DNA of 63,563 nt, the filler included, from Chrysochromulina tobinii (taxonomy: Eukaryota): assembly GCA_001275005.1 (NCBI GenBank). It is 6 parts of 6 records of this genome, joined end to end, with 100 filler letters (N's around TTAATTAATTAA, not from the genome) between each part and the next. Parts side by side here need not be neighbours in the genome. Positions count along the whole stretch, not along the records: positions 1 to 20,832 come from JWZX01000750.1; 5 more parts are not named here. One strand, written 5' to 3'. Shown one piece after another: positions 10,985 to 17,570 of the stretch. The notes below the pieces were generated by a model. The model ran no database searches. It had not been told where the DNA came from and worked only from the letters and a program-made list of their open reading frames with translations. The position numbers and the translations under genes were made by a program. The stretch's first letter is position 1, and each line of letters opens with the position of its first letter.

Positions 10985-11155
10985 CCCCGATTAGGGGGTA
11001 TGAATATTGAAGAACGGAAAGAAACACGTAAATTAGAATGAAGTAAGGCCATTCATAGCGTGGATGCATCAAGCAGGAGGTGTGTCTTTCTACGGCAACT
11101 TCAAGCCACGTCATTCTGTTCTCGCGTGCCACGTCTCTCGACCTTCAGACCCTTC

Positions 11156-12462
11156 ATGCGCTCGATCTGGAAAGGGATCCCGCACAACGAGGCTGACGCG
11201 GCCGTCGCGGCGTGGCTCTCCGCGCCCGACGGCGCGGAGAGACCACTCCCCGCGGATGCACGCGCTGCCGTCGTCGAAGAGCTCCGCCACCGCCCAAAGG
11301 CGCGTCTCTCGCACACGTTCCTGTACGATGAGCTCGGCTCGACGCTGTACGAGGAGATCTGCAAGACGCCCGAGTATTTTCTGACTGGCCACGAGGCCGC
11401 GCTCGTCAAAGCCAAGGCCGCCGACATCGCCTTCGATGCCTTCCACTCGGCAGCCGCCAATGGTGACGAGCAGGACGTGCAGGTGGTCGTCGAATTCGGC
11501 TCCGGCGACGGCCACAAAACGCTCGCGCTGCTGCGCGCGCTTCGGCCGCTCGCGCAGCACACTATCTACGCTCCGCTCGACTTGAGCGCCGAGGCGCTCC
11601 AAACGTGCGTCAGTGCGGTCAGCGCCATGGTCTCGTCCGAGCCGGGCCGTCCGCTCTCGACCATGCCACTCCATGGCAACTACGACGAGACGCTGTTCGA
11701 GGCGGCAGCGCTGCCCGGCCGCAAGCTGTACCTCTTCATGGGCTCCAACCTGGGCAACTTCACCGACGCGCAGGCCATCGCCTTCCTCCGGGGCGTCGCG
11801 CGCCACATGACCCACCGTGATCGGCTCCTCCTCGGTGTAGACACGCCAATTTCGTCCACTAAGAGCTCGAGCATGATCGAGGCGGCCTACAACGACGCGC
11901 GCGGCGTGACGGCGGCGTTCACGATCAACGCGCTGCGCCACGTCAACCGCGTCGCCGGCCTCGACTTTGACTGGCGCGACGGCTGGTGCCACGAGGCGAG
12001 GTACTCTCACGACGAGCGCGCGATCGTCACGCACCTCGTGTCTCGTCGAGAGCAGGTGAAGGCTTCGTCAGCGCCTCATGATTGCCTTGTAATTGCCTCG
12101 CCGATTGCCTCATGATTGCCTCATGATTGCCTCGTCAGTGCCTCGTCAGTGCCTCGTCAGTGCCTCGTGAGTGCCTCTGATTGCCTCTGATGGCGCGATC
12201 GTCACACACCTCTTCACACCTCCGTATCCCGAAAATGTCACAGACGGTGCGCCAGACGACGACGACGACGAGGGCAGAGGAGGAGGAGGAGGAGGAGGGC
12301 GCCGCCGGCGCGATCGTGCGCACGTACCAAGAAGGCGAGCGCATCTTCGTCGAGCAGTCGCGCAAGTTCGACGCGCCGAGCCTCGAGCGTCTTTGCCGCA
12401 GCGCCGGCCTCTTCACACGTCGCACGTGGAGCGACACCGATGGGTTCACCCTGATCAGCGAG
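11156..12462 (+). other. egtD: Domain 1 of the fusion: histidine N-alpha-trimethyltransferase (EgtD, Methyltransf_33)
   Basis: FLYDELGSTLYEEICKTPEYFLT, VEFGSGDGHKT, FMGSNLGNF, AAYNDARGVTAAF, GERIFVEQSRKF. Confidence 0.9.
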
Positions 12463-15400
12463 GTGAGTGTCGTTAATTGCCTCTTGATTGCCTCTTCGCA
12501 CACACGATGGGTTCACCCTGATCAGCGAGGTGAGTGTCGTTAATTGCCTCTTGATTGCGTCTTCGCACACACGATGGGTTCACCCTGATCAGCGAGGTGA
12601 GTGACGCCCTCGACGGCGCCCTCGGCCTCGGAGTGCCACTGAGTGCATGCTGATTGCGCTTGATGGTCGTCCTCATCAGGTGGTGCCCTCGACGGCGCCC
12701 TCAGCTGGACCGAATGCGCTCTCCCGCCCACTGCGCGTCGTCGTGATCGCCTCGATGACGTCGCACACGGGCAACGCGGTCACCGCAGCACGGATCATGA
12801 GGCTCTTGCCCGCCGCCCACGTGAGCGCGCTGGACATTCACACGGTTTCGTCACGCGCCGTGTTGGCCACCCATCTCGTGGCGGGGGGATCGGGCACTCC
12901 GGCGGCGGGCCTCGTTCTCGGCGTGCATGCGTACCGGTCGGGCAAGCTGCTGCTCGGCTGCGGCGTGCCGTACATGATCGTCCTCGGCGGGACGGACGTG
13001 AACATCGATCTGCACGAGAGTGCCAAGGGAGAGGTGATTCGACGCGTCATCGCCGAGGCGGCGGCGGTCGTCGCGTTCAATGAGGAGCTCAAGACGGGGC
13101 TCCTCGCGCGGGTCCCCGAGGCGCGCTCCAAAGTGTTCCTGATTCCACAGGCGGTGGAGCTCGAACCCCCCGAGATCGTTGACGAGACCGAGGATGACGA
13201 AACGCGCTTCCGTGAGCGCCTGCGGGCTGCGCTCGACGTAACCGCCAACGAGCAGCTGCTGCTGCTGCCCGCGGGGGTGCGACCTGTGAATGATTGCTGC
13301 CCGCGGGGGTGCGACCTGTGAATGATTGCTGCCCGCTGGGGTGCGACCTGTGAATGATTGCTGCCCGCGGGGGTGCGACCTGTGAATGATTGCTGCCCGC
13401 GGGGGTGCGACCTGTGAATGATGCCCGCGGGGGTGCGACCTGTGAAGGACGTGCTCCGAGTGTCGTTAATGGCCTCTTGATTGCCTCATCAGGTGCGACC
13501 TGTGAAGGATGTCCTCTGGGCGGCCGAGGCGATCGCCCAATGGCATGCGAGCGACCCACGCATCTGTCTGCGCATCGTCGGCCCCGTGCTCGATGCCAAG
13601 TACGCGCAGGCAGTCAAGGCGACGCTCGGCATGCAAGTGCTCACCACGACGCCCTCACTCCCCACAGGTACGCGCAGGCAGTCGAGGCGGCGCTCGCGGC
13701 GCTCGCGACGGCGCCGTCCACCGCTCGGGCGGTGCGCTACGTGGGCGCGTTGCCGCGGGCACAGCTGCACGAGGCGATGAGGATGGCGGCGATGGTGATC
13801 AACACGAGCGAGAGCGAAGGGCAGTGCAACTCGCTGCTCGAGGCGATGCTCGCAGGCACGCCCATCGTGGCGCGTGCCAATCTGGGCAACACTTCACTCC
13901 TCGTCGCTCCAGGGACAGTGCACCAGCGCTACGGGCTGCTCGGCACGACGCCCGCGGAGCTCGTGAGCCAAGCCCAACGGCTGCTTGCGTCTGATTGCGG
14001 CTGATTGCGTCTGATTGCGTCTAATTGCGTCTGATGGCGTCTGATGGCGTCTGATGGCGTCTGATGGCGTCTGATGGCGTCTGATTGCGTCTGATTGCGT
14101 CCCTCATCAGGTGAGCCAAGCGCAACGGCTGCTCGCCGATGGCGATCTCGCAGCACGGCTCACACACGCCGCCAAGGCCAAGGTGAGTGTCGTTAATTGC
14201 CTCCTGATTGCCTCTTCACACACGCCGCCAAGGCCGAGGTGCAAGCCGAGATTGCGGTCGAGCTCGAGGCCGCTTGATGGCCTTTGATTGCCTCCCTTAT
14301 CAGATTGAGTGCCTCCCTCATCAGGTGAGCGACGAGCTCGAGGCCGCTTGATGGCCTCTGATGGCCTCCGATTGCCTCCCTAATTAGATTGAGTGCCTCC
14401 CTCATCAGGTGCAAGCTGAGAATTCGGTCGCGCTCGAGGGGGAGAGGTACGCGGCAGCGGCACAGCACGCGCTCGCCATCCAAGTGCTCACCACGACGCC
14501 CTCACTCCCCACAGGTACGCGGCAGCGGCACAGCACGCGCTCCAGTACGCCGGCCCTGCGCCGCGCGACACGACCTACGTAGGGCTCCATGCGCCGCCGC
14601 CAGAGGCCCTCGGGCTGCGCCTGAGCAAGGCGGGCGTCGTGGCGGGCGTCTTCGAGGCCCTCGAGGTGTACGAATCCATACGGGCGCACACGTGGCAGGC
14701 GCGTGCTTCACGCCTCCACGCCCAGCATGCATGCGCTCACCACGGCGCGCGGGCCCTTCGCGCGCTTCATGGCCCCGCCTCCTCGCCCAGCATGCAAGTG
14801 CTCACCACGGCGCCCGGGACCTTCCCCACAGGCGCGCGCTTCATGGCTGCGCGCGCAGCTCTGGACGTCGTACCGGCGCTTTCTGGCAGCGGTGCCGGCG
14901 GCGCAGCTCGCTCGATCTCCGGGGCTCTACCCGACGGACTGGTCGATTGGCCACGTCGCCTTCACCTTCGACTACCTCGTCGCCCTCCCGCTGCGCCTTC
15001 CAACGGCCGGAGTGCTCTGGCGCCCAACTCGGCGCCCGACCAAGGAGGGCGCCGCCGCCGCCCAGCTCGGCGCCCAGCACGGCCTGCCGTTGGCGGCGAT
15101 GATCCAGCAGGCGTCGAGCGCCGCCGTGGGCGCGCTCGGCGAGTGGTGGAGTGGCGGCGCCCATGACGGCGCTGAAGGTGGCGCCCACCACGGCGCCCAG
15201 GGTGGCGCCCACGACGGCGCCGGTGTGTTGGCCGACGACGGGTGTGGGGGGGAGGCGACCTTCTGCAGCGCCCACGGCGGCGCCAAGCGCGGTGGCGGCG
15301 ACTCGGATCGCGCCGTGTTGCGCACTCAGGCGTGGACGTTATACGACTCGATGCGGGTGAGCGGAGCAGAGCGCTGATGACCGCTGATGACCGCTGATGA

Positions 15401-16643
15401 CCGCTGATGACCGCTGATGACCGTTGATGACCTCCCTCATCAGGTGAGCGGAGCAGAGCGCTGGGCGCTGTGGGAAGAAGGCGAGCTCCCCGACGCGCGC
15501 CTGTACCTGCACCAGGTGCATGCGATGGCCGACACCCTTGACTTGACCTGACTTGACCTGACTTGACTTAACTTGACTACCAGGTGCATGCGATGGCCGA
15601 CACCCTTGACTTGACCTGACTTGACCTGACTTGACCTGACTTGACTTGACTTGATTTGACTTGACTACCAGGTGCATGCGATGGCCGACACCCTCATCAG
15701 CGACTGCATCGGCGGCGTCTCCACGGGCCAGCCCGGTGCTTGCAACGGCGCTCACGACGGCGCGGCGGCAGAGGGCACGAAGGTAGCACTGCTGCCTCCG
15801 TGCGTCTCGTACCTTCTCTTGTACTCGATCGTACACACGCTCTGGCACACTGAAGAGCTCATCCACGCGCGCAACCTGCATAAGCAGCCGCCGCCGCCGC
15901 CGCCTGCCGAAGACGAGGCAGAGCCCGCGCCGCCCCCGACCCCCCCGAACCCCCGAACCCCCGAACCCCCCGACCCTGACCCCGGCGCCGACCCCGCCGC
16001 CCGCGCCTATAACGGCGCAGGACGCGCCAGCAGAGGGGAGGACCGTGCAAGATTCCCCACAGCCTCCATCTTCCGTGCCGGAGCCGCCCTGCCCGCCGCC
16101 GCCGACCCTGCCGCCGCCGCCGACAATGCCGCCGCCAACCCCGCCGCCGACAGCGGCCTTCGGGCCTTGCCAGGGCGTGGACGATGTGTGCATTCCGGGG
16201 GGCATCTTCTTCCTTGGAGCCGAACGGGATGGGCCGCCGAGCGACGCGCACCCACGCTTGATCCTCGACTGTGAAAAGTGGGCCCACACCCCTGATCTCC
16301 CGTGAGCTCCGAGATTGATCCTCGACTGTGAAATGTGGGCCCACCCCCCTGATCTCCCGTGAGCTCCTGAGCGCCTCTGATGACCGATGATGAACGCTGT
16401 GATGACCGCTAATGACCTCCCTCATCAGGTGGGCCCACCCGGTGCCCCTCGAGCCATTCCGCATCGCCAAGCACTGCGTGACCAATCGCGAGTTCGCCGC
16501 GTTTGTGCTCGCGGGCGGGTACGCAGACGAGTCGTTCTGGAGCTTCGACGGAGTGCGCTGGCTTCGTCAAGCGAAGCTGGAGCACCCGTACAAGTGGCGA
16601 CGCGTCGCTCGCGAGGACGGCGCTGGCACCAATGGAGTATGCC

Positions 16644-16674
<31 letters not shown>

Positions 16675-17570
16675 GGGCGAGGGCGACTGGCAGGCTACCC
16701 TCAGCTGCGCGCAGCTCCGCCACGCCGGTCACGGCCACGCCAGCAAGGACCCCAGCAAGGACCCAATCAAGGACCCAAGCGAGGACCCATGCTGCCGCCA
16801 ATTTCGTCTGCAGTGGTTCGACCGCATGATCCCGCTGCCGCCCTATCAGCCCGTGAGCCACATCTCGTACTACGAGGCCGAAGCGTTCTGTGCGTGGGCG
16901 GGCCGCCGACTGCCCACCGAGGCCGAGTGGGAGGCGGCGTGCTGCGGCGTCCCCACAGCTGATGACGGCCACCTCGCGCCGCATAAGGGTCGCCCGATGC
17001 CCTGGGGAGACGGACCGCCCACGACGGCGCGTGCCAACTGTGGCATGCGCCACGCCACACTGCTCGACGTTCATGAGCTGCCCGCGGGAGATTCGATCTG
17101 GGGGGTGCGCCAGATGCTCGGCAACGTGTGGGAATGGACCTCGACACAGTTCTACCCGTACCCAGGCTACGTAATGGACTTTCCGTACGTGACTGAGTGC
17201 CACTGAGCGCGTCTGATCGCCTCTGATTGCCGCTGATGGACTTTCCGTACGCGACTGAGTGCCTACTGAGTGCCACCGAGAGTGCCACTGAGTGCCACAG
17301 AGCGCGTCTGATCGCCACTGATTGCCACTGATTGCCACTGAGTGCCGCTGAGTACCACTGAGTGCCTCTGATCGCCACTGAGTGCCGCTGATCGCCGCTG
17401 AGTGCCACAGGTACCGCGAGCAGTCGGCACCGCACTTTGGCGGGTCGCGGGTCGCGCGAGGCGGCTGTTTCGCGACGCCCGACCTCATCGTGCGCGGCGA
17501 GTACCGCTCCTTCTACCACCCGACCAACCGACCGGAACTCGCCATTGGCTTCCGCACGTGCGCGCTCTGA
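11156..17570 (+). CDS. Trifunctional EgtD-SenB(GLT1D1-like)-SenA/EgtB fusion; candidate selenoneine/ergothioneine synthase, 14 exons, about 1475 aa
   Basis: Exons 11156-12055, 12244-12462, 12680-13276, 13493-13599, 13668-13962, 14111-14182, 14409-14446, 14515-14698, 14832-15356, 15444-15515, 15672-15917, 16021-16277, 16429-17184, 17411-17570 sum to 4428 nt with no internal stop. 11 GT-AG and 2 GC-AG introns. Several junctions restore conserved motifs (HLVSRREQ|TV, G|VRPVKD, YDSMR|V, DCEK|WAH, FP|YREQS). Confidence 0.85.
13277..13492 (+). repeat. Intron built largely from about 6 tandem copies of the exon-exon junction sequence (CTGCCCGCGGGGGTGCGACCTGTGAA+TGATTG)
   Basis: Visible directly; ends in TTGATTGCCTCATCAG acceptor. 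Confidence 0.85.
13600..13667 (+). mobile_element. Introner-like intron, module A (CAAGTGCTCACYACGRCG...CCCCACAG); related introns at 2323-2398, 3282-3424, 3788-4053, 4192-4291, 5209-5276, 14447-14514, 14699-14831
   Basis: Shared ~35-nt 3' module in 8 introns of two unrelated genes. The 5' part is usually a copy of the downstream exon start. Confidence 0.75.
14832..17570 (+). other. senA: Domain 3 of the fusion: DinB + FGE-sulfatase iron-dependent synthase, SenA-like branch of the EgtB family
   Basis: WSIGHVA, LYDSMRV..ERW, HTLWHTE (HxxxHxE), IPGGIFFLGA, DCEKWAHPV..PFRIAK.CVTN, PVSHISYYEAEAFCAWAGRRLPTEAEWE, MLGNVWEWT, YPYPGY..PYREQSAPHFG, RGGCFAT, GFRTCAL. Confidence 0.8.

Follow-up and report, generated by a model that had tools for sequence, protein, structure and literature searches.

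A 63,563-nt stretch of DNA from the alga Chrysochromulina tobinii (assembly GCA_001275005.1), consisting of six joined parts and referred to here as the window, carries a gene in which a glycosyltransferase (GT) resembling the poorly characterized animal protein GLT1D1 lies between the histidine methyltransferase EgtD and an iron enzyme of the NHISS type (non-heme iron sulfoxide/selenoxide synthase). Positions count along the whole stretch, which has a GC content of 63 % and eukaryotic character. Positions 11156–17570 of the plus strand form one spliced, transcribed eukaryotic gene with the following features.

11156..17570, + strand: whole gene, EgtD–GT4–NHISS fusion; spliced model of 13 or 14 exons, about 1,460–1,510 aa
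11156..12462 (exons 11156–12055 and 12244–12462), + strand: EgtD histidine N-alpha-trimethylase domain (PF10017, TIGR03438)
12680..13276, + strand: GT exon 3, acceptor-binding half, from profile alignment to SenB 8FBX; RNA splice joints on both sides
13493..13599, + strand: GT exon 4, in which R574, V576 and K577 align with SenB R155, V157 and K158; RNA joints 13275/13492 and 13599/13668
13668..13962, + strand: GT exon 5, UDP-sugar-binding half (PF13692, PF00534), with E658, G659, E666 and N662
14111..14542 (exons 14111–14182, 14409–14446 and the start of 14515–14698), + strand: end of the GT domain, from tblastn with P0017 and RNA joints
14543..15917, + strand: NHISS N-terminal extension and DinB-like half, from alignment to SenA loci and, via P0080, to PDB SenA
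15933..15970, + strand: C-rich 8-base tandem repeat of 4.6 copies, where the assembly shifts frame
16153..17570, + strand: FGE-type half of the NHISS domain (PF03781, NF041186); RNA joints 16277/16429 and 17184/17411

The 14-exon model gave 1,461 aa with zero internal stops and 63–75 % identity to the 1,538-aa database protein P0017. Pfam searches of the window placed EgtD at 11153–12462, followed by the GT4 domain and then by an FGE-sulfatase domain at 16412–17203. The EgtD domain matched PF10017 with E values of 3e-62 and 2.5e-7 (211 and 31 bits, above the gathering cut-off of 23), and exon 1 alone scored 188 bits against TIGR03438. The fusion to EgtD and SenA proposed in a first-pass annotation of the window was borne out, in frame, by the PF10017 match upstream of the GT and by matches to PF03781 (E 2e-34) and NF041186 (E 2e-46) downstream of it. 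RNA contigs from six of the 14 listed RNA runs confirmed 11 of the 13 modelled splice joints (introns 2–10, 12 and 13), and intron 1 was bridged by two contigs, the 69-letter gap between them matching a repeat that is skipped where exon 2 begins. Contig X3, spliced over 11146–13624, links EgtD to the GT, as does contig X1, and contig X2, spliced over 13492–15008, links the GT to the NHISS domain. A provisional GC–AG intron at 15918–16062 (intron 11) closed the frame and was dropped; RNA contigs read through both of its ends. The complete fusion recurs in P0017 and P0018 and partial fusions are found in P0080 and P0042 (GT–NHISS) and in P0019 and P0205 (EgtD–GT), alongside standalone haptophyte copies of the GT.

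The middle domain was identified as a GT4 enzyme by PF13692 (E 2e-10) and PF00534 (E 2e-9). Six GT motifs noted in the first-pass annotation were all present and colinear on the plus strand in exons 3–5: HTGNAVTAARI (12764–12796), HAYRSGKLL...GGTDVNID (12926–13009), AVVAFNE (13064–13084), RPVKDVL (13496–13516, with a second copy at 13436 within an intron), IVGPVLD (13574–13594) and N.S.SEG...LEAM...P.VAR...GN (13801–13890), the spacing originally given for the last being off by one residue. The likeness to animal GLT1D1 claimed from these motifs proved to be far above chance, both in bit scores and in ESM Atlas clusters. The GT of the window reached 110–145 bits with three named GLT1D1 proteins of animals, 157–159 bits with one Streptomyces and one Peregrinibacteria member and 90–102 bits with Bacillales and Geobacter members; SenB gave 20–25 bits and BshA no more than 17. 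A standalone relative, P0020, matched a named GLT1D1-like protein of Scylla with an E value of 5e-38, and with an 88 %-identical relative as query, ESM Atlas ranks 1 and 3 were Chordata GLT1D1 clusters. The closest named relatives of the domain were haptophyte proteins (Prymnesium parvum, Emiliania huxleyi and Tisochrysis). A PDB search with GT exon 3 as a single sequence returned zero matches. The best NCBIfam model for the GT was that of the GPMC-system family 4 glycosyltransferase of Geobacter/Pelobacter, NF038229 (226–265 bits in relatives, cut-off 400), which belongs to the same broad family; the Geobacter members differ in a variable R61 (SenB numbering) and in a different gene cluster.

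A phylogenetic tree was reconstructed from 58 of 94 collected GT sequences, near-duplicates and some unlabelled sequences having been left out. The animal GLT1D1 proteins compared were named invertebrate proteins of Scylla, Argopecten, Macrobrachium, Palaemon, Procambarus, Penaeus and Halocaridina. The window and the named animal proteins fell within a 35-member clade (support 95/99) that also contained bacterial sequences and excluded SenB and BshA; this clade, SenB, and the Bacillota and Geobacter sequences were in turn united against BshA and MshA (99/98). As judged from these scores, the clade and the shared pocket residues described below, the GT of the window is a member of the GLT1D1 family at the family level, differing from animal GLT1D1, which is standalone and is not the sister of the algal proteins in the best tree.

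In passages on SenB (PMC10891094, PMC10702425), docked selenophosphate occupies a pocket of N20, H58, R61, T83, T85 and R155, and K158 is the base that cleaves the Se–P bond. Residues N405, T408, R411, H456, R459, T478, D479 and Q530 in exon 3 of the window correspond to SenB N20, T23, R26, H58, R61, T85, D86 and Q131, and E658, G659 and E666 in exon 5 to E231, G232 and E239, with N662 at the position of H235; together with R155, V157 and K158 in exon 4, 14 SenB positions are kept. Five of the six pocket residues are among them, and T83 itself is present in seven of 17 Bacillota sequences. The same set, G232 aside, is kept in all seven named animal GLT1D1 proteins, one of which has Lys at position 61, and N20, T23, R26, H58, R/K61, T85, D86, Q131, R155, K158, E231 and E239 are kept in all seven other members of the haptophyte clade. 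The four BshA sequences lack N20, T23, R26, H58, R61 and Q131 and share only the generic GTD, R..K and E..E motifs. Since K158 and E231 are present in BshA too, only N20 and T23 are discriminating among K158, N20, T23 and E231. A profile of 96 family members aligned to SenB from the N-terminus, but to BshA only from position 36–49 onwards, and the BshA model scored 37 bits against a cut-off of 273.7, its acceptor pocket being different.

The domain shares with SenB (TIGR04348; Variovorax paradoxus; PDB 8FBX, 8JJN, 8JJQ and 8RZ3) the GT-B/GT4 fold, the 14 residues, a link to a SenA-type enzyme and EgtD, and a common clade against BshA and MshA. It differs in its identity of only about 21–23 %, in the replacement of T83 by Gly and in reading EGQCNS in place of the SenB motif EGGAHV, although Asn at the H235 position also occurs in three actinobacterial SenB proteins above the model cut-off. 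SenB sits in a senABC operon, whereas the algal GT is eukaryotic, spliced and fused. BshA and MshA, which are retaining GT4 GlcNAc transferases, have the same fold and similar scores, but lack the N-terminal acceptor-pocket signature (N20, T23, R26, R61 and Q131) and form separate clades.

The NHISS domain, like SenA (NF041186) and OvsA (PDB 8U41), combines DinB and FGE halves. It keeps the three-His iron triad H845 (14952), H1058 (15834) and H1062 (15846) and the catalytic Tyr1410 (17412–17414); the FGE-type half also has a YRSFY motif, and the stop codon is at 17568–17570. The SenA model NF041186 was the best NHISS model on the window (159 and 48 bits). The Phe that binds the trimethylammonium group is kept, the corresponding residue in OvsA being Ala, and the position of EgtB Asp416, the Asp of type I EgtB (EgtB-I), is occupied by Tyr, aromatic as in SenA and OvsA. 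The OvsA signature M401, Q430 and A431 is absent (Q, S and F in the window), and the fused methyltransferase is EgtD, not OvsM. In a tree of 46 NHISS sequences, from which OvsA was left out, the window, three relatives and the metagenome locus L130 formed a clade (100/99) nested inside the SenA clade (100/100), which held all 19 SenB-adjacent sequences. The algal domain differs from SenA and OvsA in its own motif, in long insertions, in an N-terminal extension that is common with L130 and in the fusion to the GT and EgtD.

Genome context was examined in 80 metagenome NHISS loci from a scan of six of 64 parts. A SenB-type GT or selD was present in the locus for 36 of the 56 closest bacterial relatives of the domain, compared with four of the 24 distant ones. 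On the eukaryote-like contig L130 (2734–5364), a GT of the GLT1D1 family, 95 % identical to P0076, begins about 50 bases after a SenA-type gene, the order being reversed relative to the fusion. L130 is a second lineage in which the two enzymes are linked; its NHISS protein retains a SenA-type His that is absent from the haptophyte proteins. The bacterial SenA sequences closest to the eukaryotic clade (90/91) came from loci L125, L126, L129, L151 and L166, and no senB was found in these loci as fetched.

Bacterial relatives of the GT were followed in 79 loci from the best 80 of 154 confirmed hits to a four-sequence query, a set that leans towards Bacillota. The genes selA, selB, selD or mnmH lay within 7 kb of the GT in 32 of the loci, which showed two gene orders, and a phosphonate/selenate-type binding protein was encoded in 24. 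For the five loci that showed selB but not selD, the genome does contain selD. Among the 47 remaining genomes selD was present elsewhere in 35, comprising all 15 Bacillota, all 18 in a group made up of Desulfuromonadales-type genomes and one planctomycete, two of nine actinomycetes and none of five Peregrinibacteria-type metagenome-assembled genomes. An even sample was drawn from one Bacillales-type order; of its 301 genomes, 170 had selD and 69 had the GT. All 69 GT genomes had selD, and the GT was present in none of the 131 selD-negative genomes (Fisher p 4e-21, uncorrected; the genomes are related, so this value overstates their independence). The GT lay within 10 kb of selD in 54 of the 64 genomes with both coordinates printed, and 17 GT genes started no more than 1.2 kb from selD, in a third gene order. 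The GT was absent from all 31 listed genomes in which the selD gene has no in-frame TGA, which suggests that it goes with selenocysteine-containing SelD. R61 was lost in all 12 loci of selD-negative genomes and in two selD-positive actinomycetes, and was kept in 48 of the 65 other bacterial loci, the exceptions being mainly of the Geobacter type.

No NHISS or EgtD gene lay within 7 kb of any of the 79 loci. SenA above its cut-off was found in none of the 69 Bacillales-type GT genomes (52 had no full-length NHISS gene and 17 had a full-length EgtB-like gene), and SenB above its cut-off in none of five Desulfuromonadales/Planctomycete genomes. The unnamed Bacillales GT, of the same broad family, differs from the algal one in that its neighbours are selA, selB, selD and an ABC transporter of the phosphonate/selenate type, with no SenA. 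Loci L014–L079 and L084–L095 contained an uncharacterized selB–GT–ABC transporter–selD–selA cluster and two other gene orders. Actinomycete loci (L001–L005, L007, L008, L011 and L013) were mostly selD-negative and had lost R61; their GT neighbours were a macrolide-esterase-like hydrolase (fused in L008 and P0135), a GT2/GT7C enzyme, a major facilitator superfamily (MFS) transporter and a HAD phosphatase. The actinomycete members probably serve a different, non-selenium pathway.

With a SenA-type domain fused to it in the window, one adjacent to it in L130 and selD in all 69 Bacillales-type GT genomes, the GT has genetic links of the SenB kind. The GLT1D1-family middle domain likely does the job of SenB, joining selenium to a sugar, and we consider it probable that the algal fusion is a selenosugar-to-selenoneine synthase. 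In the proposed mechanism EgtD would trimethylate histidine with S-adenosylmethionine to give hercynine. The GT would bind selenophosphate in the pocket formed by N405, H456, R459, T478 and R574, the supplier being a separate selenophosphate synthetase that was not seen in the window; UDP would be displaced with inversion from UDP-GlcNAc or UDP-GalNAc, and K577 would cut the Se–P bond to leave a 1-seleno-beta-sugar. The iron domain (H845/H1058/H1062, Tyr1410) would then join the selenosugar to C2 of hercynine, and the resulting selenoxide would eliminate unaided to selenoneine, which would explain the lack of a fused EgtE-type lyase. According to passages of a preprint (bioRxiv 2022.04.13.486033), SenA stalls at the sulfoxide in the absence of a lyase when given thioglucose, a very poor substrate, and SenC makes no thiophosphate, so a sulfur version of the pathway is less likely.

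The enzymic steps that form the mammalian selenosugar HSeGalNAc are described as unresolved in passages of a 2026 review (PMC13714061), in which the selenosugar is beta-linked and is proposed to form by an SN2 reaction from alpha-UDP-GalNAc. By analogy, this proposed route to a beta product is SenB's chemistry. Animal GLT1D1 would, slightly more probably than not, be a selenosugar synthase, and is a candidate for the enzyme forming HSeGalNAc. In animals and many Bacillales the GT is found without SenA, so that the pathway would stop at the selenosugar. Deacetylases are repeated companions of the GT. YdjC was the fusion partner in eight of 32 long GT hits (P0102, P0103, P0106, P0137, P0165, P0172, P0175 and P0199), was adjacent to the GT in five of the 79 loci (L009, L012, L018, L026 and L061), and a NodB-type deacetylase was present in several Bacillales loci (L084, L085, L087, L092 and L093). 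Mammals also excrete the deacetylated selenosugar CH3SeGalN (PMC13714061), which makes YDJC a candidate for the deacetylation step. The other partners among the 32 hits were an N-acyltransferase in three (NAT_N/GNAT_C; P0086, P0093 and P0127), peptidase M23 in two (P0180 and P0204), PhyH in one (P0134) and a hydrolase in one. The chances are about even for a joint reading in which GLT1D1 would be the eukaryotic selenosugar synthase, making HSeGalNAc in animals from selenophosphate and UDP-GalNAc as the first step towards the main urinary selenium metabolite, with YDJC a candidate for producing its deacetylated counterpart. In this reading haptophytes and at least one other eukaryotic lineage would use the enzyme with a SenA-type partner for selenoneine, and selenoprotein-using Bacillales, without SenA, would make a selenosugar as the end product.

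Several observations weigh against a selenium role for the algal fusion, and others against its extension to animals. At the level of the gene, the assembly shifts frame at 15933–15970, the RNA contigs stop there and none covers 15954–15994, no single contig spans the gene, and Tyr replaces a conserved Asn close to H845 in this strain. The gene might be disrupted here, or its reading as one gene might wrongly unite two or three neighbours, but spliced RNA contigs connect EgtD with the GT and the GT with the NHISS domain in frame, three database proteins hold the GT and both NHISS halves in one chain, and the break falls in an 8-base tandem repeat of a kind in which assemblies commonly slip, one extra unit or one base less restoring the required phase; either of these readings is very improbable. 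At the level of the GT, the SenB T83 position is Gly (G476), and scores against the SenB model TIGR04348 stayed far below its cut-off of 300, two exons of the window reaching 24 and 40 bits and full-length relatives 44–67 bits. The family profile ranked BshA (E 3e-27) above SenB (E 1e-23). Foldseek with the predicted structure of the algal GT returned SenB at ranks 1–10, yet the predicted scallop GLT1D1 gave BshA at rank 1 and SenB at rank 3, and VIA-align favoured BshA (Z 33.7, root-mean-square deviation 2.6 over 325 aligned residues) over SenB (Z 31.9, 2.6 over 306). Fold comparison was discarded as functional evidence, since it does not separate SenB from BshA. At the level of the iron domain, full-length relatives scored 242–279 bits and L130 314 bits against a SenA cut-off of 420, SenA still being the best NHISS model each time. 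The SenA composite motif is xNEH--HRHxHYYN(F/Y)(F/Y)R (PMC11030361), but the window has x-Y-S-H--G-R-HxH-Y-Q-S-F-Y-R, with four to five changes (E to S/T, H to G, Y to Q and N to S, and N to Y in this strain, its relatives having N at the first position), so that substrate or regiochemistry may differ. This motif fits neither SenA nor OvsA, and the best PDB match of the NHISS relatives was OvsA (E 5e-53), above EgtB (9e-35) and SenA (5e-27). The fusion could make a related but different product: ergothioneine by way of a thiosugar, a stable thio- or seleno-hercynine that still bears its sugar, or an ovoselenol-like compound substituted at position 5. EgtD–EgtB fusions that make ergothioneine exist in fungi. 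With EgtD fused and the trimethylammonium-binding Phe kept, Tyr at the EgtB-I Asp position as in SenA and OvsA, a domain that nests among SenA and not among EgtB-I or EgtB-II, and the stalling of SenA on thioglucose, another product is unlikely, and selenoneine is preferred.

For animals, the alternative is a functionally mixed family in which algal and Bacillales members act on selenium and the animal protein has moved to a different acceptor, for instance in BshA-like GlcNAc transfer followed by YdjC deacetylation, or in protein N-glycosylation. In the GT tree animals are nearer to actinomycete, Peregrinibacteria and acyltransferase-fused sequences (97/95), mostly selD-negative, than to haptophytes; 12 of the 47 GT genomes lack selD (seven of nine actinomycetes and all five of the Peregrinibacteria type), and these actinomycete and Peregrinibacteria sequences are the bacterial ones closest to animals. 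The phylogeny called for in the first-pass annotation recovered the shared family clade (95/99), but not a haptophyte-plus-animal clade, which was absent from the best tree and was not rejected by the approximately unbiased (AU) test (p 0.146); a haptophyte-plus-SenB clade was not rejected either (p 0.093). Geobacter members have selD and yet a variable R61, the scallop protein fold shows no SenB preference, and the family also has the other fusion partners described above, YdjC among them. GLT1D1 levels affect PD-L1 glycosylation (PMC7191186), although the passages seen of that paper contain no purified-enzyme assay. On the other side, R61 is present in none of the 12 selD-negative sequences, while all seven named animal proteins have Arg or Lys at this position along with the other pocket residues; selenium-linked SenB, Bacillales and algal fusion members surround the animal branch, which would make selenium use the simpler ancestral state; and the proposed SN2 origin of the beta-linked mammalian selenosugar is again that of SenB. 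The mixed family, which touches the animal extension only, is a real possibility at somewhat worse than even odds. The original interpretation is thus partly supported: beyond the fusion itself, the placement of the GLT1D1 family in SenB-type selenium chemistry is backed by the acceptor pocket, the 99/98 clade, selD in 69 of 69 Bacillales-type genomes, mostly beside the GT, and the 100/100 nesting in SenA, and the step to animal GLT1D1 is plausible only.

Eight of the 13 modelled introns (12056–17410) open with a duplicate of the 11–12 bases that begin the following exon, and their interior is made up of short tandem repeats, suggesting intron birth through splice-site duplication; the intron at 14699–14831 is of the GC–AG type. 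Neighbouring open reading frames (ORFs) of the window (193–61583) look unrelated to the fusion. They encode MOSC (193), FKBP with C10 (5819), pseudouridine synthase with a cold-shock domain (8375), FYVE (17809), BTB-Kelch (24809), EF-hand, MFS, aldose epimerase, VWA and thioredoxin-like proteins, and no selenium genes were found among 29 long window ORFs scanned.

A link between GLT1D1 and selenium was not found in a literature search judged by titles and abstract openings, with supplements and most subscription journals outside it, and the terms GLT1D1, SenB and glycosyltransferase had no match in the main text of PMC13714061. The SenB and selenosugar literature found was bacterial or commentary, and no paper was found that brought selenosugar, glycosyltransferase and SEPHS2 together. 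In a 2026 phytoplankton study, low-mass selenium peaks are reported as unidentified in G. huxleyi, with selenoneine not identified; these passages (PMC13652914) neither support nor refute algal selenoneine.

The finding names one gene for the gap in HSeGalNAc formation and offers an alternative reading of GLT1D1, for which one functional paper was among those found, assigning it to PD-L1 N-glycosylation (PMC7191186). The Bacillales members provide a simple bacterial system for the chemistry of the GT. If the proposed function of the algal fusion is correct, a eukaryote would have its own dedicated route to selenoneine; the published descriptions found concern bacteria only. Marine food webs would then gain an algal source of selenoneine which, given the abundance of this compound in marine animals, would bear on the selenium cycle of the oceans and on the detoxification of mercury.

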